From: Microgenomates group bacterium | Lineage (GTDB): Bacteria > Patescibacteriota > Microgenomatia > UBA10105 > UBA927 | Length of the DNA: 64,000 nucleotides | Assembly: GCA_049287205.1 (NCBI GenBank) | Contig: JBAQFJ010000001.1 | Coordinates: forward strand, 191,041-255,040 | Direction of reading: 5' to 3' | In this document: in pieces, positions 2 through 61,593 of the stretch | How the letters are laid out: each line of letters starts with the position of its first letter | Numbering within the stretch: the stretch's first letter is position 1 | Program-made: the position numbers and the translations under genes | Notes under the pieces: model-generated | The model's database searches: none | What the model was told of the DNA's origin: nothing | The model's input: only the letters and a program-made list of their open reading frames with translations

Positions 2-247
2 GAGCAATGTCCGGAATGCGGCAATACACTGGTCATACGAACCGGGAAATTCGGCAAATTCATTGCCTGCAGCAATTTTCCGACGTGCAAGTATACCAGA
101 CAGAAACTCGAAACGATTGATATGAAATGTCCGAAATGCGGGGGAGATATTGTAGTGAAAAAAACACGGTATGGAAAAACATTCTATGGGTGCAGCAATT
201 ATCCAACATGTACATTTGCTGCGTGGAAAAAAGAAGATATTAAATAG
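2..247 (+). CDS. topA: DNA topoisomerase I, C-terminal zinc-ribbon fragment (5' partial)
   Basis: The frame-2 translation [32 protein letters not shown]...[39 protein letters not shown] contains two CxxC...GCSN(F/Y)PxC zinc-ribbon repeats typical of the TopA C-terminus. The stop codon is at 245-247. Confidence 0.7.
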
Positions 248-252
248 GAAGT
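217..252. repeat. Left copy of a 36-37 bp imperfect direct repeat (tgctgcgtggaaaaaagaagatattaaataggaagt). It spans the topA stop codon.
   Basis: Seen directly. About 34 of 36 positions are identical to 1371-1406. Both copies keep the frame ...AAWKK(E/G)DIK*. Confidence 0.8.
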
Positions 253-316
253 AGCTTCGTTGTTAATCTTTAAGAAAATATTGATAATACCAGATAAATC
301 TGTTACAACAGAATAA

Positions 317-340
317 GCTTAATAGCTTTTTTTACTTGAG
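317..340 (+). terminator. Weak intrinsic terminator downstream of topA
   Basis: Stem aagct, loop taat, stem agctt, followed by ttttttt. The stem is short and AT-rich. Confidence 0.35.
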
Positions 341-343
341 TTT

Positions 344-1357
344 TTGAACGTATGTATGAGAGTATATATTGACGCAAATATTTATCTTCAATTATTTGGT
401 CCTGCAGGAGACAAAGCCGATTATATTGGAAAAATAATAAAATTAATAAAAGCAGGTGATGTTGTTGTGATATTTCCTAAAATTACTCAAAATGAGGTGT
501 TTCGGAATATAGGCAGTATTTATGATCAAAAATTACAAAAAACAAAGGTGAAAAAATCTGAATTACAGGATGTTGATGAAGATGACAATGATGATATACG
601 AAGAATAAAAAATAAACATATTCAAATATGTCAAGAAAGTGTGACTAAAGACCTTGCAATTTTTAGAGAAGAATACCAAAAAACTAAACAGTCGGTTTTT
701 AACAGTATTTTTAAGGATTTAAGATTTCAAACAGATGATTTTCCTGAAACTGATGAATTAGTGAGTAAAGCAAATTTTAGACACATAAAAGGGTATCCGC
801 CAGGAAAAGGACCACATATTGGCGATGAGTTGGCTTGGGAAATTCTTTTAACAAATTGTTTAGATGACGATTTGACGATTATAGCAACTGATCCAGATTG
901 GCGTGATAAGACTTCAGAAAAATTGATTCTAAATATGTTTTTGAGAGAGGAATGGGAACAAAAAACAAAGAAAAAAATAATTTTACAAAATTCATTAGGT
1001 GAATTTATTTCTCAATATCCAAAAGTCGGTAAAATAAAAAAAGAAGATATTGAAGCAGAAGAAAGAATGAATACAATACCATTTTATAGAGAGACTATGT
1101 TGTATGGCTTGACTGGAACAACTGGACCAACTGGACCAACTGGAATAGCTGGAACAGAGATGATGACAGGTGCCACGGGTCCAACAGGTTTTTATCAGAT
1201 TGGTACGATTAAGGGAGATACTGGTATCAGCGGAACATCAGTTAATCTTGGTACTTTACGACCAGTACGTTGTTTAAATTGTAATAGATCTTACTATGAT
1301 ATGCCTTCAGGTGGAGTATGTCCCGAATGTGGATTGCCAACATTAGTGTTTTTTTGA
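344..1357 (+). CDS. Hypothetical protein with an N-terminal PIN-like nuclease domain, a collagen-like GxT repeat region and a C-terminal CxxC...CxxC zinc ribbon
   Basis: The N-terminus VYIDANIYL...QNEV...IIATDPDW shows PIN-like acidic residue spacing (assigned by eye). The repeat region reads GLTGTTGPTGPTGIAGTEMMTGATGPTG. The C-terminus reads CLNCN...CPECG. The gene is markedly AT-rich and has no clear SD (Shine-Dalgarno ribosome-binding site). An alternative start is at 356. Confidence 0.55.
   Translation: MNVCMRVYIDANIYLQLFGPAGDKADYIGKIIKLIKAGDVVVIFPKITQNEVFRNIGSIYDQKLQKTKVKKSELQDVDEDDNDDIRRIKNKHIQICQESVTKDLAIFREEYQKTKQSVFNSIFKDLRFQTDDFPETDELVSKANFRHIKGYPPGKGPHIGDELAWEILLTNCLDDDLTIIATDPDWRDKTSEKLILNMFLREEWEQKTKKKIILQNSLGEFISQYPKVGKIKKEDIEAEERMNTIPFYRETMLYGLTGTTGPTGPTGIAGTEMMTGATGPTGFYQIGTIKGDTGISGTSVNLGTLRPVRCLNCNRSYYDMPSGGVCPECGLPTLVFF
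1112..1156 (+). repeat. In-frame tandem 9-bp repeat (ACTGGAMMA, five units) encoding the GxT collagen-like segment
   Basis: Seen directly: actggaaca actggacca actggacca actggaata gctggaaca. Confidence 0.75.
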
Positions 1358-1370
1358 AATTTTAGTTGAT

Positions 1371-1406
1371 TGCTGCGTGGAAAAAGGGAGATATTAAATA
1401 GGAAGT
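1371..1406. repeat. Right copy of the direct repeat (tgctgcgtggaaaaagggagatattaaataggaagt)
   Basis: Seen directly. It reads as a vestigial topA 3' end (IAAWKKGDIK*). Confidence 0.8.
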
Positions 1407-1447
1407 CACTTTGACAACGCTTGTGCACCTCGTAGTATGATAAGGAT

Positions 1448-1663
1448 ATGGAAGAGCGGACAAAAACTATCGCGGCGATCACAATACTTGTAGGTATTGT
1501 GGTTGTCATCATTGTTGTTGTCGGTATTCTGTTATCCTCAAAAAAAGTTATTTCCCCAGTTCCTGCGGAAGGATCGATAAAAATAATTTTTATTTCTCCA
1601 ACGCCAATTTCAGGATTGCCTGCAACACCATCCGCAACGCCAAAAATTCCATCTGGCAGATAA
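1448..1663 (+). CDS. Small membrane protein with one TM helix and a Pro/Ser/Thr-rich tail
   Basis: ORF with a hydrophobic segment IAAITILVGIVVVIIVVVGILL. No homology was recognised. Confidence 0.4.
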   Translation: MEERTKTIAAITILVGIVVVIIVVVGILLSSKKVISPVPAEGSIKIIFISPTPISGLPATPSATPKIPSGR

Positions 1664-1688
1664 CAGAGTAATTTGATACGTTTAACAT

Positions 1689-2300
1689 ATGCAAACGATA
1701 GGTATTATTGATACAGCTGTTTTTTATGCGATCAATCAGCTTCCACACGGATGGTTGTCAGACGGATTTTTTGGCATGCTTTCCGGTCTTGGAGACAGCG
1801 GGTTTATCTGGTTGATGATCGGTATTTGGCTTATTTTTCGTGAAGAAAAACGGGATAAACGTTTTTTTCTCCCTCTTGGAATTGCAGGAGGTATGAGTTG
1901 GTTTTTATCGGAAATACTTATTAAATCCATTGTTGCCCGCCTGAGGCCATCCAATGCGCTTGATCATGTTATCTCAGTTGGATTTCCCAACGGGTATTCA
2001 TTTCCATCATCCCATGCAACGCTTGCGTTTGCGTTCGCTGTCGTACTTTCTTATAAAGAGCCAAAGTTGAAAAAATTCTTTTTCATTTTAGCGATCCTTA
2101 TAGGGTTTTCCCGTATCTATTTGGGGTACCACTATCCAGGTGACGTGCTTGCAGGAATCGCCTTGGGTCTTTTGATCGGGTATCTCACCACTCTTTGGTA
2201 TAGACAGAGCAAGAAAAAGAAGCAAAAGGGATTGAAGAAAAGTACACGGTCAAAAAAATATCAAAAAATGCCTCCACAAAAACACCGTCATCGCAGATAG
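1689..2300 (+). CDS. PAP2-family phosphatase, likely an undecaprenyl-diphosphate phosphatase
   Basis: PAP2 motifs KSIVARLRP, PSSH and SRIYLGYHYPGDV are present. The protein has multiple TM segments. Confidence 0.85.
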   Translation: MQTIGIIDTAVFYAINQLPHGWLSDGFFGMLSGLGDSGFIWLMIGIWLIFREEKRDKRFFLPLGIAGGMSWFLSEILIKSIVARLRPSNALDHVISVGFPNGYSFPSSHATLAFAFAVVLSYKEPKLKKFFFILAILIGFSRIYLGYHYPGDVLAGIALGLLIGYLTTLWYRQSKKKKQKGLKKSTRSKKYQKMPPQKHRHRR

Positions 2301-2327
2301 ATGGGCGTTCATTGTATAATACAACAG

Positions 2328-2870
2328 ATGAAAATGAATGCGAGTCAGCTTCGAACGCAACCAGTTGATATGGAGGTTGCAACATCAATTACAAAAAATC
2401 CCATTACCATTATTTTAGATAATGTACTCGATACGTATAATATTGGATCCATTTTCAGGCTTGCCGATGCAGTAGCAGTAGAAAAAGTGTATCTTTGTGG
2501 TGCAACAGAAATGCCGCCAAACACGAGGATCAAAAAAGCATCCATCAATACGTGTGAATGGGTGGATTGGGTATATACAAAGACAACCCTTGAGGGGCTT
2601 GCTGATTTTCGGAAAAATCATCCTGACGGGCAAATTATCGCTGTTGAGCAAGACAAAAAGAGTGTTCCGTTTCAAGATGTGGTGTATACAACGCCAATTG
2701 CAATTATCGTTGGTAATGAGACATACGGTGTAAGCCGCGAAGTATTGGAGAACGTCGATACGATTGTAGAACTGCCGATGTTTGGCATTAACACGTCACT
2801 GAATGTCATGGTAACGACGGGGATAGTGCTGTACGACATTATTAGAAATACACACAACAAACCCTCGTAA
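2328..2870 (+). CDS. SpoU/TrmH-family RNA 2'-O-methyltransferase
   Basis: Motifs ILDNVLDTYNIGSIFRLADA, IVGNETYGVS and ELPMFGINTSLNV are present. The start is uncertain (2328, 2334 or 2370). Confidence 0.8.
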   Translation: MKMNASQLRTQPVDMEVATSITKNPITIILDNVLDTYNIGSIFRLADAVAVEKVYLCGATEMPPNTRIKKASINTCEWVDWVYTKTTLEGLADFRKNHPDGQIIAVEQDKKSVPFQDVVYTTPIAIIVGNETYGVSREVLENVDTIVELPMFGINTSLNVMVTTGIVLYDIIRNTHNKPS

Positions 2871-5418: not shown

Positions 5419-6420
5419 ATGGCACATATGCAAAAAGCTCGAGGAAAAATATTTATCGTATGCATTTTTGCAGAATGCCTCAGTATCGCCATACTTTGTG
5501 TCTATATTATTGCCTTACATAAAACGCAGGCGATGCGAGCATTCCATGTCCTTCCTTTGTCTCAGAATACTGTCCAGTTTCCGATAGATACGGCGCTTCG
5601 CTATTACTATGAATTAGCACCAAATACTACGAAAATAGATGATTTTGCTTACATGCGGCTGACCGGCAAAGCGGTTCATACTATTAACGCGGATGGATTA
5701 AACGAAAGAATGATGTATGCGCTATCAAAACCTATTACCACATATAGAATTGTGACAGTTGGCGACTCTTTCACTGAAGGCGCGTTTGTTGATACAAAAA
5801 ATAATTATTCGGAAGTTTTGGAGGATATGCTCAATAGTAGCGTACAGTGCCCTTCTTATCAGCATTTTGAAGTTATTAACTTGGGTGTTGCCGGATATGA
5901 TATGCAATATAATCTTGAACGATTTAAGCAAAAAGGACTGAAGTATGATCCAAATCTTGTTATTCTTTGGACAGACGAAAATGATTATGTTGCCAATAAC
6001 GAAAAATATTACGCCTTGGTTGATACGTGGGATCCAGTGAAAGAATCGCCTGAAATTATTGCTTTATATCAATCTCAAGGTGACTTTGCGCCAGAGTCAA
6101 ATGCTGTCTGGTATAAATTTAATTCGTTATATACAAGGACAACACTTGTTGCGGAAGAACTGACGTATCTTCGTAATTTTATGCAGTTTGTTCAGAGTCC
6201 ATTGATCATTTTTTCATTGAGCCGGACGCCGAAAGACATTCGGCAATCAATCCAAACGATGGCGTATCAACAACAGGGAGCATTCTATTTTCCTGAGATA
6301 CCAGATGTGTATGATAAATTTCCTGATGACCACCCCTCTGTTGTAGGACATACGCAGTTTGCGGAATTTTTATATAGAAAGCTTCAGTCTTCTGTTCTTA
6401 CCGATTGTGTTTTTCGGTGA
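5419..6420 (+). CDS. Membrane-anchored SGNH/GDSL hydrolase, paralog 2 (tandem duplicate)
   Basis: IVTVGDSFTEG and DDHPSVVGH are present. It shares the YYYEL(A/T)PNT...NADGL(H/N)ER region with paralog 1. Confidence 0.75.
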   Translation: MAHMQKARGKIFIVCIFAECLSIAILCVYIIALHKTQAMRAFHVLPLSQNTVQFPIDTALRYYYELAPNTTKIDDFAYMRLTGKAVHTINADGLNERMMYALSKPITTYRIVTVGDSFTEGAFVDTKNNYSEVLEDMLNSSVQCPSYQHFEVINLGVAGYDMQYNLERFKQKGLKYDPNLVILWTDENDYVANNEKYYALVDTWDPVKESPEIIALYQSQGDFAPESNAVWYKFNSLYTRTTLVAEELTYLRNFMQFVQSPLIIFSLSRTPKDIRQSIQTMAYQQQGAFYFPEIPDVYDKFPDDHPSVVGHTQFAEFLYRKLQSSVLTDCVFR

Positions 6421-8098: not shown

Positions 8099-9274
8099 TT
8101 ATCTGTTTTGTAATAATTCAAATATTTTTGGATAGAGTATTTCGGCAGCCGATTGATTTCCTAAGGTATTGAGATGCGTATCTTGAGGTTGATAGTATTG
8201 TGTTGCTAATTCGTCTTTTTTCCAAATTTCAAGTAAATTAATATATTGAATATTTTTTTGATGAAAATAATCCATTAATAATCGTTGTGGTAAATCTACT
8301 TCAAATGAATCTACAGATCTATGTAATCGTGAGGCAACTTTCGTAAGTAACTCACTATTTACTTGCATTTCCTCTGGAATGATTAAAACTAAAAATTGTG
8401 CATTTGCCTGTTCAGTCAATTCTTTCATATGAGTAATATATTGTTGAACACGTGGTAATGAGAGGTATATTGAGCTATTTGGTAGAAAAATTGATGCTTT
8501 GTGAGTTTCAATCTCCAAAAAATTTTCCAATGAAAATGTTGGCTCATTGGGATTATAAGATGAATAACTATCAATCCCCAACGATCCATACGAAGAGGAT
8601 GAACTGGTTTGATTTGCCATCATAGAGGTTCTACCAAAACGTATGGTGTAATATAAATTTCGTGTTAACGATACAATTTTTGATTGATAGAACATGAAAG
8701 GAAGAAGGTGGGGTTGTTTATTTTTTTCATCTGCATAGCGTTCTATATTTGTATGTGTGTCTAAAAAATCATTTCCGACATAAAACGCAAGAAGAACAAT
8801 GTCTGGTTGATAACGTATTCCTTCTAAAGAAAGAATAATCGTTTCAGTCGGCGGCCCAATGCAAGGCAACGCAAGATTAATGGCTTGAAATTTATTTGAA
8901 TAATTTGATTGAACATTTTTTTCTAAAAGGTTGATAAATAATTGATTATATGGAATGGGTCCAACTGATTGAGAGTCTCCAAGTAATACTAAGCGTTTGG
9001 TATCTAATGGTTTAGCGTATGGGGTTTCAGGTGTTCTGAATCCCTTAGAATTAAGAACAAATCCATATAATTCATATCCTGGCGGAGTAGGGCAATCAGA
9101 CAAAGTCCATAATCCTTGCCAATCAATGTTGGTTACGTACCGATTTTGCTGATACGGATTGGTGGTAAAAAATAATAATTTAGGTGATATTTTTTCAGCT
9201 TCACGAAGAAAAAGTTCCGATAGAACAAAAACAAAAAAAATTCCGATTATGCTATATAACAATTGTTTTACCAT
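8099..9274 (-). CDS. Membrane-anchored SGNH/GDSL hydrolase, paralog 3
   Basis: VLLGDSQSVG and DTHLNTLGN (DxxH) are present. There is an N-terminal TM helix. Confidence 0.75.
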   Translation of the reverse strand: MVKQLLYSIIGIFFVFVLSELFLREAEKISPKLLFFTTNPYQQNRYVTNIDWQGLWTLSDCPTPPGYELYGFVLNSKGFRTPETPYAKPLDTKRLVLLGDSQSVGPIPYNQLFINLLEKNVQSNYSNKFQAINLALPCIGPPTETIILSLEGIRYQPDIVLLAFYVGNDFLDTHTNIERYADEKNKQPHLLPFMFYQSKIVSLTRNLYYTIRFGRTSMMANQTSSSSSYGSLGIDSYSSYNPNEPTFSLENFLEIETHKASIFLPNSSIYLSLPRVQQYITHMKELTEQANAQFLVLIIPEEMQVNSELLTKVASRLHRSVDSFEVDLPQRLLMDYFHQKNIQYINLLEIWKKDELATQYYQPQDTHLNTLGNQSAAEILYPKIFELLQNR

Positions 9275-15056: not shown

Positions 15057-15248
15057 AATTTAAAATCGAAGATGCGAAGCATACACGAATGAGTAATCAT
15101 TCCACTATATGATGAGCATCGATAGATTTTTACACGCATCTCTTTGAGAGAGTGCGTATATATAAACTATTCTCGAGCAGAATAGTTCTCTCAAAATACC
15201 CATGTTCCTGTCACCGTTTAGTACATCAAGTATTTACTGTTTTTCGTT

Positions 15249-15275
15249 ATCCCGCTTTGCACGCGGGATTTTTTG
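15249..15275 (+). terminator. Intrinsic terminator after the 16S trailer
   Basis: Stem atcccgc, loop tttgcac, stem gcgggat, then tttttt. Confidence 0.7.
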
Positions 15276-15300
15276 TAGACACTTTGTCTATAATAGGAAT

Positions 15301-16338
15301 ATGTTTCGTAAAACAAATTTTTTATCCTGTTTTATTATCATAGGGATTTTGATTTTCTTTATTGTCGTATCTGAATGCATCGTCCGTTTTTTATCTGACA
15401 GACATATAGTGTCGTATTACAAGCCTATTGAACTGGTTAAGCAGCATGAAACAGCGGAGGAATTGCGGTTGAGTAATGTATTTTCAAATGGTGAATCTGA
15501 ATTTGAATATGATCCTTTGTTTTTTTGGCGTCCCAAAAAAAATGTAGGTGTGTTTAATACTTTAGGGATACGAGCTGATTCATCTGGTCTGCAAGAGTCA
15601 GTTAACACATCATGTACGGTCGTCATGTACGGCGATTCAAATACTGTGGGTGCGTTTCAGGGTGGGTACTATGATTCTCCTTGGCCTGAAGAATTGGGGA
15701 AATTACTTCAGAAACACATTCCTGATGTCAGAATATTTAATATGGGGGTCTCAGGTTATTCTTCCTATCAGGGATTGGAAAAATTTCGTCAGGATATTCC
15801 TTTCTTTCATCCGTCACTTGTTTTTGTTGCATTTGGTTGGAATGATGCCGCTCCTAATATGGGAATTTCAGATAAAGAGTTTCATACCATGCTTTCTTCC
15901 TTAGTATCACCGTTAAATAATTTTCGATTGTTTCAAGTAATTAAATACTATTCTGATGCCTTGCTTCAACGATATATCCAGAAAACTGTATCAGACGGAC
16001 CAAGAGTTTCATCTGAAGATTTTAAAAATAATTTAGTTGCGTTTATTCAACTTGCACAACAAAATAATAGTACGATTGTCTTCATAACTCGACCCCACAC
16101 AGATTTTTCAGATTCAGAATATTCCAATTGGCGAGTACGCGTTGTGGAAAATAACGCCATTATTCGTTCTGTTGCCTATGAATACGGCGTCCCGATTATT
16201 GACATGGAAGAAATGTTTCTCAACCAATACAAAAATGAGTTAATCGATGATTGCCATTTTACCCAAAGAGGTCATACGATTGCAGCTCATGAAATATATA
16301 CATTGCTTCAACGTGAACAGTTATCGTGTGGATACTAG
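15301..16338 (+). CDS. Membrane-anchored SGNH/GDSL hydrolase, paralog 4
   Basis: MYGDSNTVG, GWNDA and DDCHFTQRGH (DxxH) are present. There is an N-terminal TM helix. The start is at the internal ATG 15301. Confidence 0.75.
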   Translation: MFRKTNFLSCFIIIGILIFFIVVSECIVRFLSDRHIVSYYKPIELVKQHETAEELRLSNVFSNGESEFEYDPLFFWRPKKNVGVFNTLGIRADSSGLQESVNTSCTVVMYGDSNTVGAFQGGYYDSPWPEELGKLLQKHIPDVRIFNMGVSGYSSYQGLEKFRQDIPFFHPSLVFVAFGWNDAAPNMGISDKEFHTMLSSLVSPLNNFRLFQVIKYYSDALLQRYIQKTVSDGPRVSSEDFKNNLVAFIQLAQQNNSTIVFITRPHTDFSDSEYSNWRVRVVENNAIIRSVAYEYGVPIIDMEEMFLNQYKNELIDDCHFTQRGHTIAAHEIYTLLQREQLSCGY

Positions 16339-16343
16339 TGTTC

Positions 16344-17408
16344 TTACTTGCTGAGCATTGATTTCCATAGGATCGGTTGACCTAAGTTTCCTAAAATGCT
16401 CTGATATGCTTCGCATGGTGTCCAACAATTAGCGCAGCGTTTCATCTGGATTATGTGCAACGCATTGAGCATTTTTTTATCGTTCCACATAGTCATAAGG
16501 TTTCCTTTATTTTTTTTGATGTTTCCTAATGGTTGATTCCACATAGAGCAGGGGAAGATGTTCCCGTATGGGTCAATGAATATTGAACTTGAGAGAGACC
16601 TGCATGAGATTGGGGTTTTTTTGGTTGTAATATATTTTTGAATAAGGCGTTGATAGATTCGTTCAATCCATGCGATTTTTGTCCACGCAAACGGTTTTTT
16701 TTGGTTAAATTCACTGATACTCTTTATCATGGCGGAGCTGAGTGTCAAATGTTTCTCTTCATTTCCATAGTAATGTGATGATTGGTGAGCAATATTAAAA
16801 TGAATATCAGATCGTTTCAACGATGGAATCTCATTTTTTAACTCACGATACGTTTGTTCTATAGTCATAAAATTATAGTTTGAAATAGTCATCCCGAAAT
16901 AACAGTCAAATCGTGATGATCGCAATGCTTTTAGTTGTGTATATGTCGTTATCGCATGTTTCCAATTACCCTTGATACCACGAAGCTGATCATGTAGGCT
17001 TTCGGGACCGTCAAGAGATACAGAAACAAGAAAATGTGGAGGTTTCAGTTCTAGAATTTCTTTCACTTGATTTACTATTCTCTCTGTCAATAAGCCGTTA
17101 GTGGGAAAGTTAAGAAATAGCAGATGTTTTTGTGTCGTTAGAATTGTTTTACAAATAGAAACAAGATCGTTTCGAAGTATCAGTTCTCCTCCTGTCAGAT
17201 TTACCCAAGTAAAGAAGGTATTTTTTTTGAAAAAATCATGTATTTCAGATAATGTAAGTTCCTTCTTATATGGTTTTTTCCAAATGTTGCATATCGTGCA
17301 GCGGGAATTGCATCGATAGGTGATAGCGAAGGTAAGTTTATACGGAGAAGGTAACCGTATGAGGTTAGATTTGAGAATGGTGAAGATGCTATACAATGTA
17401 TTATTCAT
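16344..17408 (-). CDS. Radical SAM protein with a C-terminal SPASM-type Cys-rich domain
   Basis: CNSRCTIC (CxxxCxxC) is near the N-terminus. C-terminal cysteines CRSL...CSMW...CANCWTPCEAY follow. It overlaps the GT-C gene start by 8 nt. Confidence 0.85.
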   Translation of the reverse strand: MNNTLYSIFTILKSNLIRLPSPYKLTFAITYRCNSRCTICNIWKKPYKKELTLSEIHDFFKKNTFFTWVNLTGGELILRNDLVSICKTILTTQKHLLFLNFPTNGLLTERIVNQVKEILELKPPHFLVSVSLDGPESLHDQLRGIKGNWKHAITTYTQLKALRSSRFDCYFGMTISNYNFMTIEQTYRELKNEIPSLKRSDIHFNIAHQSSHYYGNEEKHLTLSSAMIKSISEFNQKKPFAWTKIAWIERIYQRLIQKYITTKKTPISCRSLSSSIFIDPYGNIFPCSMWNQPLGNIKKNKGNLMTMWNDKKMLNALHIIQMKRCANCWTPCEAYQSILGNLGQPILWKSMLSK

Positions 17409-18879
17409 TTGAGCTAATACTATCTTTAGTTATTCGATATAACGTGTGGTAATTATAACGATTTATCATACTATCATACAGAATGATGATTTTTTCTTTA
17501 TGAAGATCCAAAATAGGCGGGTCGTTTGGCTCATCGATATAGGAAGGATCAATAAAAATGATTGGTGATAAATTTTGTTTATTTGCATAATAAAAAACAT
17601 TTCCAAGTTCGATGGTTCCTTCATTGTTGATATTCCAAAAATGCATATTTTCTTTATATAGAGGATTGGAATATTTAAATGATGGTGTGTCCCATTGATA
17701 AAGCCAAGGGAGTGTGACGATTAAAGCGTTGGGATAGTTTGTATGAATATACTCTATCGATTTTGTATATAAGGTTGTTACATGAAATAGATTCAAATCT
17801 GTTTCACCCCAATAATCCATTGGTAGATAATAATAATGCGCTATATGAATGCATATAAATATAGTGCCTATGCATATACTTAGAATAAGTGCTTTTATTT
17901 TCGAGAAAAAAAACATCATCGTTGCACCTGAGACAATAAATAAATATGGATATAGCGGGAGCAAATATCTTGGAACGAACGCGCTAAAAAAATACAAGAG
18001 AACATAGAAGAAAAAAAGAAATAGAAAAAAGAGCAGTGGCATATATCGCTTTTTTTGAAATGGTATTTTTTTAGCTAAAAAAATAACAACATATGTAATA
18101 ATAGTTGGCCATATGAGCCAAATGCCATTAAAAAGAAAAATAAACTGTAGTATGTTTTGTATTGTTATTACAAAGTTTCTGTTAAAACTAAGTAGTCCAA
18201 AGTTGGCAGGATCTAAGTAAAAACTAAAAATCATTTTGTTTAATCCCATCCATATGAGAATTGCGATAAGAGGGAGGCAATACGGAATTGCTTGCCTGAT
18301 TGATTTTGATAGAGAGAAATGGAGTAAAAGCTTTAAGCGATATGCTTCATATAGACAGATAAAAAATGGAATAAATAGAAACGGTTCTTTTGTAAGCACG
18401 AGAAGGGTGGCTGAAATGTAGTACCAAAGTTTATTGTGTGTGAAATATGCATACATGGTCATAAGCAGCAAAAAAGTAAGAATTGAGACGTCGTTAAAAA
18501 AAAAGCTTTGTGACATGAAAAGAGGAAAAATACACAGAAGCACGGTTGCATACAAACCTGTTTTTTTATCAAAAAGCTGTTTCCCTAATAAATACGTGAA
18601 TAGTAGGGATAATGAGGAAAACGTATAAATAATAAGACTTCCGACTGTTAATGACGGACCGAAAAATTTGAATAATAATGCAGATAAAAAAATGAACACG
18701 GGAGGTCTATAGGAGATATACAATGTAAAAGGATTCAAATTATTATTTAACATTTTTAGAGTTGCATCGTAATAAACTGCTTGGTCGTTATATGGAAGTG
18801 TATGCATAAACGGAATACGAAGGAAGAAATTTAATATACAAAGAGCAATAACGAACAGAAGCCATTTATCAATCCTCAT
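17401..18879 (-). CDS. GT-C-fold glycosyltransferase (ArnT/PMT, GT39/83-like)
   Basis: About 12 TM helices. The first loop contains PYNDQAVYYDATLKM. The C-terminal soluble domain is about 130 aa. Confidence 0.75.
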   Translation of the reverse strand: MRIDKWLLFVIALCILNFFLRIPFMHTLPYNDQAVYYDATLKMLNNNLNPFTLYISYRPPVFIFLSALLFKFFGPSLTVGSLIIYTFSSLSLLFTYLLGKQLFDKKTGLYATVLLCIFPLFMSQSFFFNDVSILTFLLLMTMYAYFTHNKLWYYISATLLVLTKEPFLFIPFFICLYEAYRLKLLLHFSLSKSIRQAIPYCLPLIAILIWMGLNKMIFSFYLDPANFGLLSFNRNFVITIQNILQFIFLFNGIWLIWPTIITYVVIFLAKKIPFQKKRYMPLLFFLFLFFFYVLLYFFSAFVPRYLLPLYPYLFIVSGATMMFFFSKIKALILSICIGTIFICIHIAHYYYLPMDYWGETDLNLFHVTTLYTKSIEYIHTNYPNALIVTLPWLYQWDTPSFKYSNPLYKENMHFWNINNEGTIELGNVFYYANKQNLSPIIFIDPSYIDEPNDPPILDLHKEKIIILYDSMINRYNYHTLYRITKDSISSNE

Positions 18880-19011: not shown

Positions 19012-19686
19012 CTAAAAAGTAAGACAATTTTGTAATAAATTCCAAACAAATCGGCTCCACATATTTTTTAAAATAATTTTTGACTTTCCATATTTCCTTT
19101 TTAATTCATGGCTCGCTATTTCATTTACACAAAAGTGCTTATGCAGTGATTTCATAAGCATATCTTGTTCAATAGTGAAAGAATTTTCTTTACAAGAAAT
19201 ATTTTTTGCTACAGAGCAACGAATTGCACGGAATCCATTTTGGGAATCAGTTATTTGTGATTTGTATCTCCAATTGATAATTTGAGTTATTATAGCGCTT
19301 CCAATCATTCTGATAGTTTTTTCAAAATCACCATGTAGTTCATCACTTCCGCCTTTTCCTCGCGATGCTATAACGAGGTCAGCTTGCCCTTGAATAATGG
19401 GTGTAATTAATTTTGGGATGTCTGAGGCTTTGTGTGAACCGTCTGCATCCATCAAAACAATAATATCTCCAGTTGCTTTTTTTATTCCTAGTTGAACTCC
19501 TGCGCCTTTTCCTTTGCCGTTATCCAAAAATACTTGTACTCCATTGGATTTTGCAATAGCGCGTGAATCATCTTTCGAATGTCCATCGATAACCAGAATT
19601 TCGTTAACGTAGGGTTTTGCTTTTGTGATAACTGACGCAAGAGTAGAAGATTCATTTTTACAACAGATGACCAATGTTGTTTTCAT
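19012..19686 (-). CDS. GT2-family polyprenyl-phosphate glycosyltransferase (Dpm1/ArnC-like)
   Basis: VICCKNESSTL, IDGHSKDDS and LMDADGSH (DxD) motifs are present. Confidence 0.85.
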   Translation of the reverse strand: MKTTLVICCKNESSTLASVITKAKPYVNEILVIDGHSKDDSRAIAKSNGVQVFLDNGKGKGAGVQLGIKKATGDIIVLMDADGSHKASDIPKLITPIIQGQADLVIASRGKGGSDELHGDFEKTIRMIGSAIITQIINWRYKSQITDSQNGFRAIRCSVAKNISCKENSFTIEQDMLMKSLHKHFCVNEIASHELKRKYGKSKIILKNMWSRFVWNLLQNCLTF

Positions 19687-60471: not shown

Positions 60472-61593
60472 ATGAGTGGAATGCATAGGAAAAAAATTTT
60501 TCGTGTGGTTTTTTGGACGTGTTTTGTGCTGCTTCTTGATTGTTGCATTGGTCATTTTTATTTACAAAAAACGCATCGTCAATATTATACGGATTTGATG
60601 CAAAAAGAACGCGGCAATTCCAACCGTGTTTCTGATAGTATGTATCACCATGGTCTCGTTCCTAATACAGAAGTTCTGTATAGTTGGAACAACAGTGATC
60701 CGTATCCTTTATATGTCAATTCTCTTGGTTTATTGGATAAAGAGATTCGTTTTATCCCGAAAACAACAGAGAAACACAGAATTCTTTTCTTGGGTGATTC
60801 TTTTACGGAGGGATTAGGGTATCCATATAAAAAAACGTTTGTCGGACGGATCGCTCAGGCGTTAGGCGATGAGAACTACGATGTGTTAAATGGTGGACTG
60901 ATGACGTATTCTCCGAAGCTGTATCTGGAAAAAACAAAATACATCGTCGCATCTCAAGAGATTCAGGTAGATGAAGTTGTCATATTGCTTGATCTATCAG
61001 ATATTCATAATGAAGCCTACAAATATAGAAATTTTCAGCCTGTTGAGAATTCGAATATTGCAGGTGCAACACAGACGATTATTCGTCATGCATTGTGGGA
61101 CAAGCTGAAAGGGGCGAGTATTGATAATTCATTGTTGGTCAATTCGCTCTACACGATTACGGTACGGAAAAAGGAAAAAGAACGGATGCTTGCCAGTTTA
61201 TATCCGTATCAAACAGATTATCAGGCGTGGACATATAACAATAAACAATTTGCTGCATATGGAAACATCGGACTGTCCTTGTGCAAGACATATCTTGCGG
61301 AATTAGTTGCCTTTTTACGAAATCATGCAATCACCAACATAACATTAGTCGTGTATCCGTGGCCGCAACAGATTACCTATGATACGGTTGATTGCATACA
61401 GGCGACATATTGGCAGACATTCGCCACTGAACAAAATATTTCCTTTGTCAATTTGTTTCCGCAGTTTTTTTCCTTCCAGCAAAAGGAAAATCTGTATAAC
61501 AGTGATAATCATTTTAACGAACGAGGGCATCAGGTCGTTGCCGATGTTCTCATGAAAACCATTGGCGCAACTACGGAAGCAACAATTAAGTAA
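60472..61593 (+). CDS. Membrane-anchored SGNH/GDSL hydrolase, paralog 5
   Basis: LFLGDSFTEG and SDNHFNERGH (DxxH) are present. There is an N-terminal TM helix. Confidence 0.75.
   Translation: MSGMHRKKIFRVVFWTCFVLLLDCCIGHFYLQKTHRQYYTDLMQKERGNSNRVSDSMYHHGLVPNTEVLYSWNNSDPYPLYVNSLGLLDKEIRFIPKTTEKHRILFLGDSFTEGLGYPYKKTFVGRIAQALGDENYDVLNGGLMTYSPKLYLEKTKYIVASQEIQVDEVVILLDLSDIHNEAYKYRNFQPVENSNIAGATQTIIRHALWDKLKGASIDNSLLVNSLYTITVRKKEKERMLASLYPYQTDYQAWTYNNKQFAAYGNIGLSLCKTYLAELVAFLRNHAITNITLVVYPWPQQITYDTVDCIQATYWQTFATEQNISFVNLFPQFFSFQQKENLYNSDNHFNERGHQVVADVLMKTIGATTEATIK

Follow-up and report, generated by a model that had tools for sequence, protein, structure and literature searches.

A PIN_12 gene inserted at the 3' end of topA in a Microgenomates bacterium, between two copies of the topA terminus

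A 64-kb stretch of the genome of a Microgenomates group bacterium (contig JBAQFJ010000001.1; the whole stretch is called the window) begins with the 3' end of topA. Just past the topA stop codon lies an insert of 1117 nt (positions 253-1369), which holds one gene, for a PIN_12 nuclease-like protein, and is bracketed by 37-nt direct repeats that duplicate the topA terminus. This DNA is an insertion relative to every relative examined. On the sequences compared, the best reading is that the topA stop codon serves as a recurrent insertion hotspot, occupied in other lineages by a homologous PIN gene, by another gene, or by no more than a scar. The favoured account of the locus, at a probability of roughly 45%, is insertion at this hotspot by a Campbell-type or site-specific event.

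The duplicated topA terminus

The repeat pair, at 216-252 (TTGCTGCGTGGAAAAAAGAAGATATTAAATAGGAAGT) and 1370-1406 (TTGCTGCGTGGAAAAAGGGAGATATTAAATAGGAAGT), matches at 35 of 37 bases and is the strongest direct repeat across the entire window. Two mismatches distinguish the copies (left AAAAAAGAAGAT, right AAAAAGGGAGAT), and the longest exact run common to both is at most 18 bases. A pattern search allowing up to 3 mismatches finds two copies in the 64 kb; the expectation from 100 shuffles is 0. A dispersed repeat is therefore ruled out: two copies are present in the window and none elsewhere.

A preliminary description of this DNA had drawn attention to the pair, taking the left copy as the present end of topA and the right copy as the displaced ancestral end. 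Both assignments hold. The left copy comprises the last 29 nt of the topA coding sequence, the stop codon TAG (245-247), and 5 nt more. It is in frame with the two Zn_ribbon_Top1 domains of topA (Pfam 2.6e-34) and encodes the conserved KKEDIK end; the topA C-terminus is 65-90% identical to those of Gottesmanbacteria, nearly all of which end AAWKKEDIK. The right copy translates as AAWKKGDIK followed by TAG, and an in-frame TAG three codons upstream places it outside any gene. Both copies extend 5 nt (GAAGT) beyond the stop codon.

The two copies share synonymous states (GCT GCG ... GAT ATT AAA TAG), along with the post-stop GAAGT, that are variable among relatives. Both window copies thus come from one recent sequence. 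The simplest history since duplication would be one substitution per copy: AAG to AAA, synonymous, in the working copy; and GAA to GGA, non-synonymous, in the displaced copy.

Empty sites in relatives

Relatives were collected with three queries: the 81-aa topA C-terminus; a degenerate topA-end DNA pattern; and m71-related proteins (m71 is the 71-aa membrane-protein gene downstream of the insert). The resulting sample of about 200 loci, nearly all from Candidatus Gottesmanbacteria, consists of topA loci only. The gene order dprA-topA-m71-PAP2(-SpoU) is conserved across these loci. Among 172 unique topA-m71 junctions, 110 are empty, 24 are occupied, and 38 are unscorable, so that 110 of the 134 scorable junctions are empty. 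In the empty junctions (n=110), m71 starts a median of 72 nt (maximum 158) past the topA stop; in the occupied junctions (n=24), 0.6-4.2 kb lies between the two genes. No PIN gene was found by tblastn in the 172 unique junctions of this census. No relative carries the gene inside the same repeat pair. The preliminary description had predicted empty sites in which topA is followed directly by the PAP2 gene. Empty sites do exist, with m71 (1448-1663) standing before PAP2.

The closest relatives are all empty. Each has the topA stop, a spacer of 17-86 nt, and then m71, with the PIN gene in none: L026 (m71 83% identical in amino acids); L072 and L011 (topA C-terminus 90%); L216-218 (80%); L219-221 (75%); and L012 and L013. 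The native TAA-AAAGTGGTTTTGACATACGAATGTACTTCCGTAGTATGATAAGAAT-ATG of L216 is colinear base for base with TAG-GAAGTCACTTTGACAACGCTTGTGCACCTCGTAGTATGATAAGGAT-ATG of the window, read from the right repeat. Indeed, the right copy and the 41 nt downstream are colinear with the native terminus, spacer, and promoter of L216, which identifies the right copy as the displaced ancestral topA terminus. For the window itself, an empty site reconstructed in silico reads topA...TAGGAAGTCACTTTGACA. Exact-pattern scans of Joint Genome Institute (JGI) metagenome contigs for a strain-level empty site, in its lineage-specific form, returned zero matches.

The junction also differs in a very close strain. L215, a 680-nt ENA contig (ERZ27247358 k141_851020), encodes an identical m71 protein and is 96.1% identical to window positions 1432-1819 (m71-PAP2). 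Upstream of m71 position -16 it diverges, with no relation to the window sequence. Its positions 1-292 hold the end of an open reading frame (ORF), ...TGSRTVNVNAGGGISQQ-stop, and then an L026-like spacer; this ORF has no homologue in the window or in the approximately 200 loci. The junction thus varies between very close strains. In some lineages the post-topA spacer consists of short tandem repeats: AATAACCCAATCATCC three times in L030 (+3 to +45), and CCAATA(A/C)AT-like units in L026 (+3 to +60) and L215.

These comparisons bear on two simpler explanations. One is that nothing was inserted: the PIN gene would be ancestral in a Gottesmanbacteria subclade and repeatedly lost, for instance by recombination between the repeats. 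A homologue does occupy the same junction in L010, where the protein closest to the cargo (P0002, 53-56% amino-acid identity) is encoded between the topA end and the m71 start (MDDRR), and its divergence is similar to that of the flanks between both lineages (m71 48%, PAP2 43%, SpoU 64%). Moreover, all family members are lower in GC than their surroundings, so low GC alone is no proof of recent transfer. However, over such divergence a non-coding copy of 37 nt could not have kept 95% identity, and both copies share young, lineage-specific states. With at least eight closest relatives and 110 of 134 junctions empty (among them L013, a relative of L010), very many independent and precise losses would be needed. 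The GC content at third codon positions (GC3) of the cargo gene, finally, is the extreme of the window. Ancestry with repeated loss can be given very little weight.

The other explanation is an assembly artefact, in which an AT-rich fragment of another organism was joined into the metagenome-assembled genome (MAG) at a short shared sequence. It draws on the left junction, from topA to the insert, which is seen in the window's own assembly alone; the Logan contig L001 begins at window position 266. The right junction (cargo, right repeat, m71, PAP2, SpoU), by contrast, is 100% identical in three independent run-level assemblies (L001-L003), and L010 shows the succession of topA end, PIN gene, and m71 in another lineage. 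There are 2 differences between the repeat copies, and their exact matches run to 18 bases at most, too short to mislead an assembler working at k=31 or larger. An artefact of this kind is scarcely credible.

Organization of the locus

The features of the locus, all on the plus strand, are as follows.

2..247, plus strand: topA 3' end with C-terminal zinc ribbons (Pfam Zn_ribbon_Top1, 2.6e-34); the gene runs off the window start
216..252, plus strand: left direct repeat (topA end, stop, 5 nt)
253..1369, plus strand: inserted DNA, 1117 nt, missing from all relatives, 31.7% GC
260..288, plus strand: candidate cargo promoter, TTGTTA-17-GATAAT (9/12 in a consensus scan that overall is not above shuffle expectation)
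315..335, plus strand: weak 5-bp hairpin, AAGCU-UAAU-AGCUU, with a U-run (whole fold -7.5 kcal/mol, z -1.2)
356..1357, plus strand: cargo gene, 333 aa (Pfam PIN_12, 1.5e-11), the sole ORF of the insert
1370..1406, plus strand: right direct repeat, the displaced topA terminus plus 5 nt, colinear with the L216 native end and outside ORFs
1411..1438, plus strand: predicted native m71 promoter, TTGACA-16-TAGTAT (10/12, the best promoter match in 1-1800)
1448..1663, plus strand: m71, a gene for a 71-aa single-pass membrane protein (tblastn across about 200 loci; homologues P0044-P0058)
1689..2300, plus strand: PAP2 phosphatase gene, conserved flank (Pfam PAP2, 3.3e-24)
2301..2870, plus strand: SpoU-type RNA methyltransferase gene, conserved flank (Pfam SpoU_methylase, 3.3e-31)

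The m71 promoter starts 5 nt past the right repeat and is kept in L216 and L012. The right repeat may occupy the UP-element position of this promoter. The preliminary description had counted a weak terminator among the contents of the insert. The only hairpin in question (315-335) lies upstream of the cargo gene, falls under the terminator-scan threshold, and sits in a region that folds no better than shuffles; as a sequence feature it could possibly act as a terminator for topA, brought by the insert. Neither the terminator scan nor folding revealed a terminator 3' of the cargo gene, and Rfam families gave only sub-threshold chance matches in 1-2500.

The next junction downstream is variable as well. 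The PAP2 and SpoU genes abut in the window (2300/2301). In several relatives a gene of 432-448 aa without a Pfam match (or about 1.4 kb) lies between them, as in L216 (4214-5512), L219 (2981-4327), and L072.

The cargo gene and its protein

The insert holds a single, AT-rich gene and no integrase, as first described. The 333-aa product matches Pfam PIN_12 (formerly DUF4935, PF16289) at 45.5 bits (1.5e-11; cutoff 32) and is identical to protein P0001 of an NCBI Microgenomates group bacterium MAG. Across six homologues, residues D6, E47, D157, D179, and D181 (the PIN acidic residues) are invariant, as are the four cysteines of a C-terminal CxxC...CxxC motif (zinc ribbon). An AlphaFold (AF2) model, with a mean predicted local distance difference test score (pLDDT) of 69.7, is confident over residues 1-235, where it shows a PIN fold interrupted by a long helical insert. 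The Gly-X-Thr repeats (residues 239-301) fall below pLDDT 50, have no secondary structure assigned, and make up a disordered collagen-like linker; a small beta ribbon closes the model. Among PDB structures, VapC-type PIN toxins match the fold best, with weak E-values, and a PDB sequence search returned nothing significant. The product is thus predicted to be a VapC-like PIN_12 domain protein with probable nuclease activity.

A profile search of 1.84 billion cluster representatives identified 308 homologues at E<=1e-30 and 1738 at E<=1e-10; among the best 150 matches, most are full-length, at about 300-350 aa. The DUF4935 family has been described as VapC-like PIN proteins of unknown function, usually monocistronic (PMC5499597). 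The cargo conforms: it scores above the Pfam threshold, keeps the acidic active-site residues, and is monocistronic. It is unlike VapBC in that a partner antitoxin gene is wanting in the insert, whose single ORF is the cargo itself; homologues in other contexts also stand alone. A canonical VapBC module is thereby ruled out. PADLOC defence-system models gave no match at E<=1, and the PHROG matches reflect the collagen-like repeat only, so assignment of the cargo to a known anti-phage defence system was rejected.

The preliminary description had proposed measuring the GC content of the insert, and this proves atypical: 31.7% for 253-1369, against 40.5% for the window. Among 49 window ORFs, the cargo gene has the lowest GC3 (0.183; mean 0.361, sd 0.049) and the third lowest GC (0.324). 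PIN homologues elsewhere are also less GC-rich than their surroundings, so composition supports recent transfer without proving it. These other homologues lie in unrelated genomic contexts (L004-L009), and flanking repeats were found around none of L004-L010.

Within the cargo gene, at 1037-1051, 15 nt match the left repeat exactly (AAAAAAGAAGATATT, KKEDI in frame). Considered as a third recombination site, it was judged to be probably coincidental, because its peptide belongs to a motif, KITKExIExEK, that is conserved across the family.

Two further observations concern related or similar genes. Distant PIN_12 homologues, about 40% identical to each other in amino acids, share a leader, AAAGGGGAGTAAATTNGCCTY, directly 5' of the start codon in differing contexts (L004 119-155; L005/L006; L007 3350-3383; L008). 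In the window, three more ORFs are AT-rich (8099-9274, 17401-18879, and 19012-19686, all on the minus strand), with GC of 0.31-0.34 and GC3 down to 0.22. One of them encodes a family-2 glycosyltransferase, and the three may be further acquired genes in a surface-polysaccharide region.

Recurrence at the topA-m71 junction

Recurrence was assessed by aligning each locus's topA end against its own downstream DNA across the approximately 200 loci. Background scores reach 28 at most. The window scores about 64, and the outliers are three loci from two genomes, with scores of 43-94.

The highest score (94) belongs to L090 and L133, which represent the same genome (Gottesmanbacteria RIFCSPHIGHO2_02_FULL_40_13). 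Here a 559-aa ORF without Pfam or PADLOC matches comes after the topA stop, and a second topA end comes after the ORF. Over its last 46 nt this second end hardly differs from the working copy; the 21 nt further upstream have 8 mismatches, yet still encode an in-frame, topA-like GKTFYDCSNFPTC. L071, the locus closest to L090 (84% nucleotide identity in topA), is empty: the topA stop, 16 nt, and a gene starting ATGAGACGCCTGCCTCT. That same gene follows the second topA copy in L090. Judged from its sequence, the mosaic L090 copy is what incoming DNA with a topA end of its own would be expected to leave.

In L079 (score 43), two topA ends lie 48 nt apart, leaving a 48-nt scar. The sister genome L042 (AAGTGAC...) agrees with the downstream copy and the flank beside it; at the end of the working copy stands AAATAAC. 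Cargo and insert ends are unrelated between the window, L079, and L090. In all three, homology outside the repeat is not significant against shuffles in flank alignments, so the repeats have sharp edges, and longer att arms or a duplicated promoter are ruled out.

Other junctions are occupied by other genes. L158 (oriented) contains, 668-1453 nt past the topA stop and before m71, a gene for a 261-aa DUF6602 / PD-DExK NucC-like nuclease (Pfam 4.5e-18; PADLOC PDLC01495 1.7e-19), with no duplicated topA end. Most occupied junctions were rejected as mobile cargo; they appear instead to be lineage-specific operon variants with genes for secreted SLT-like cell-wall hydrolases and for membrane proteins. 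Paralogous genes for GDSL-like lipase/acylhydrolases occur in the window (5419-6420, 15202-16338, 60472-61593) as well as in L036 and L012, and a related GDSL-like gene fills the topA-m71 junction in L036.

Could the repeat be a long target-site duplication? A transposition-type insertion would produce about 37 bp of duplicated target if an enzyme encoded elsewhere made widely staggered cuts, as Cas1-family integrases do. The sharp repeat boundaries, with no homology beyond, suit this idea, and the window copies look like a true duplication of resident DNA; a duplication of the same 37-nt length occurs at the topA 5' start in L105 (see below). However, the insert ends carry no terminal inverted repeats, no transposase or Cas1 gene is present among the 20 window ORFs tested, and the duplication length is inconstant between cases. 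Nor do the three cases share conserved termini, cargo and insert ends being unrelated, and the L090 displaced copy is a mosaic rather than a resident copy. Transposition of this type is very unlikely. For conventional insertion sequences, transposons, and miniature inverted-repeat elements, the same absence of terminal inverted repeats and a duplication length that is not fixed (37 nt here, 24 to at least 46 elsewhere) led to rejection.

Duplications at the topA 5' start

Terminus duplications do not seem unique to the topA 3' end, to judge from two further loci. In L049 (oriented, 1372-1724) and L105 (oriented, 922-1122), the first 37 nt of topA (TATGACRCTYATTATTGTYGAATCACCGACAAAAGCA) are duplicated. 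The duplicated segment overlaps the dprA stop codon and flanks a hairpin-rich element of 106-127 nt. The upstream copy retains the dprA stop, the downstream copy is the working topA start, and both genes are intact. L049 contains three copies of the topA start, along with a scaffold gap.

A broader proposal would unite both ends of the gene. Gottesmanbacteria, and perhaps other bacteria of the candidate phyla radiation (CPR), might have an undescribed, integrase-independent mode of insertion at gene boundaries, which duplicates 24-67 nt of the terminus and lets both neighbours survive. Its sites would include the topA stop (window, L090, L079) and the dprA stop/topA start (L049, L105), and its cargo would be single-gene cassettes, nucleases among them. 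On this view, the topA end would be an address used in cassette exchange, not the scar left by a conventional island. This proposal is unlikely.

Several Gottesmanbacteria loci contain dispersed copies of a short palindromic motif, GTCAYCCTGAAC...GTTTCAGGRTC, which often forms a pair with GATGCTGAAA...TTCAGCATG: L049 (oriented) 2313-2344; L079 7304-7372; L093 68-104; and L097 12114-12150. One 32-nt copy lies in frame within the L049 topA coding sequence, reminiscent of the Rickettsia palindromic elements (RPEs).

How the insertion may have arisen

The favoured account proceeds as follows. A small piece of foreign DNA, with one PIN_12 nuclease-like gene and probably its own promoter, would have recombined into a chromosome of the Gottesmanbacteria lineage (Microgenomates). 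The crossover would fall in a segment made up of the last ~30 nt of topA and a few bases beyond its stop, in a single reciprocal, Campbell-type exchange. The catalyst may have been a site-specific recombinase acting in trans, or homologous recombination on the short shared topA-end sequence. Thereby topA would keep a complete 3' end (the left repeat), and the original terminus would move 1.15 kb downstream (the right repeat), still directly before the native m71 promoter. The present islet has no mobility gene, and most likely is a fixed or only passively exchangeable remnant.

The architecture fits reciprocal exchange: the working end is continuous with topA, the displaced end joins native downstream DNA, and the repeat edges are sharp. 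Incoming DNA that carried a topA end is favoured by the L090 displaced copy, which is a mosaic, and by the L079 working copy, whose stop codon differs from that of the sister genome. An att-site and integrase mechanism is plausible but unproven. The attL/attR signature proposed at first therefore stands in part. Terminus repeats and empty sites are present; that a recombinase made these repeats as att sites is not established, given the lack of a recombinase, the lack of a dyad, and the variable length.

Several observations weigh against site-specific insertion. No integrase or recombinase is encoded in the insert, among the 20 window ORFs, or by the cargo ORFs of occupied junctions. Neither dyad symmetry nor a hairpin is present in the repeat (fold 0 kcal/mol). 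Repeat length and boundaries vary: 37 nt in the window, 24-29 in L079, and at least 46 in L090. A second topA end is absent in L010. No circular form, excision junction, or donor was observed in the sequences surveyed, all of them assembled, and no viral contig has the topA-end motif; with zero matches there, a phage- or plasmid-borne attP carrying the topA end was rejected. The left junction, as noted, is seen in a single assembly. Finally, the window copies share lineage-specific states and GAAGT and look like duplicated resident DNA, so an element-borne site would need a very close relative as its source.

Two classes of mobile unit were considered and rejected. An Xer/dif element would have dif-like inverted arms, of which there are none, and GC skew is positive across the locus with no skew switch. 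An integron cassette is opposed by the folding of 1340-1410, no better than shuffles (z -0.34), and by the lack of an integrase.

The same observations can be read in terms of repair and selection. DNA from a relative, taken into the cell (dprA adjoins topA in these bacteria) and anchored by topA homology, would have been joined illegitimately or captured at a staggered break, with a few dozen bases duplicated in the process, and selection would have filtered the products. Varying repeat lengths (24-29, 37, and at least 46 nt), a recombinase found nowhere, and window copies that both resemble resident sequence are all in keeping with such an origin. So is the position of the native -35 box, 5-9 nt past the topA stop, which puts the topA end in the UP-element position. 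If one and the same stretch completes an essential gene and serves the m71 promoter as its upstream region, then only insertions that duplicate the terminus would survive. In addition, the 37-nt duplication at the dprA stop/topA start (L049, L105) is analogous, with both genes intact. On the other side, published experiments on illegitimate recombination reportedly find that recipient DNA is deleted at the joint rather than duplicated. In the absence of site preference, fewer than three or four independent events would be expected in the same 25-nt stretch, although sampling topA loci only introduces ascertainment bias. For the mosaic displaced copy in L090, an element-borne origin is the better fit. 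An origin through repair and selection is a serious competitor, though less likely than the favoured account.

Implications

The host is an uncultured groundwater-type bacterium, and the locus provides a clean, recent gene gain that can be checked against empty sites. To our knowledge, few mobile elements have been characterised in CPR bacteria. Genomes in this group are small (the source contig here is about 1 Mb), and the organisms live attached to other cells. A gene-gain hotspot adjoins an essential gene, and the junction varies even between strains that are 96% identical in its flanks. The nuclease-type genes at the site (PIN_12 in the window and L010; NucC-like PD-DExK in L158) could have functions in defence or conflict.

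There is a modest possibility that terminus-duplicating insertions at both topA ends reflect an undescribed process in these bacteria. If the duplications at the two ends do share one mechanism, that mechanism has not yet been described. Otherwise, the insert is an ordinary decayed islet, and mainly a marker of strain variation.

Comparison with known systems

Xer-dependent elements and dif modules offer one parallel: a short, integrase-less cassette bounded by repeated sites. Such elements are moved by host enzymes; the dif-like dyad is absent from the repeat here.

Loci for Rhs, contact-dependent inhibition (CDI), and type VI secretion system (T6SS) effectors offer another. In these, as at topA, new DNA at a conserved gene end displaces the old end, a process that can do without a dedicated recombinase; for Rhs and T6SS loci, such displacement has been attributed to homology-facilitated illegitimate recombination (PMC5361080). 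The difference lies in what is exchanged. Rhs, CDI, and T6SS loci exchange their own toxic C-terminus together with an immunity gene, whereas here the insertion leaves the topA protein as it was and brings in an unrelated gene.

A cis-mobilizable element (CIME) has retained its att sites and lost its mobility genes (PMC5704250). The insert is similar, retaining both att-like repeats without genes for integration or transfer. CIMEs are recognised by their descent from, and mobilisation by, an integrative and conjugative or integrative and mobilizable element (ICE or IME) with an integrase of the same specificity. No integrase-bearing relative element at the topA site was found in the 24 occupied junctions (ORFs, Pfam, PADLOC), the 20 window ORFs, or viral contigs.

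The last parallel is e14 at icd in Escherichia coli K-12. This element comes with genes for an integrase and an excisionase. Its neighbours are icd on one side and the C-terminal pseudogene icdC on the other, and it excises on SOS induction (PMC13626634). As at topA, insertion is into the 3' end of an essential gene, whose own end stays complete, and a displaced C-terminal fragment remains at the far side. Two hallmarks of e14-type integration are found here: direct repeats that include the target terminus; and an unoccupied attB in relatives (110/134 junctions). A third, an element-encoded integrase, is not, the sole insert gene being PIN_12. On the origin of the repeat copies the observations point different ways: both window copies are resident-like, the L090 displaced copy is a mosaic, and the L079 working copy has a stop that differs from its sister genome. 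The mosaic in L090 is the closest parallel to e14. Unlike e14 (15 kb), the insert is 1.1 kb with one gene and no recombinase, its target is topA, and its host is a CPR bacterium.

On this analysis, the locus would work like e14-type integration and resembles a CIME, while departing from each in one defining feature. It is of a known type, a small islet that lacks an integrase and sits where a conserved gene ends; new are the host group and the target site.

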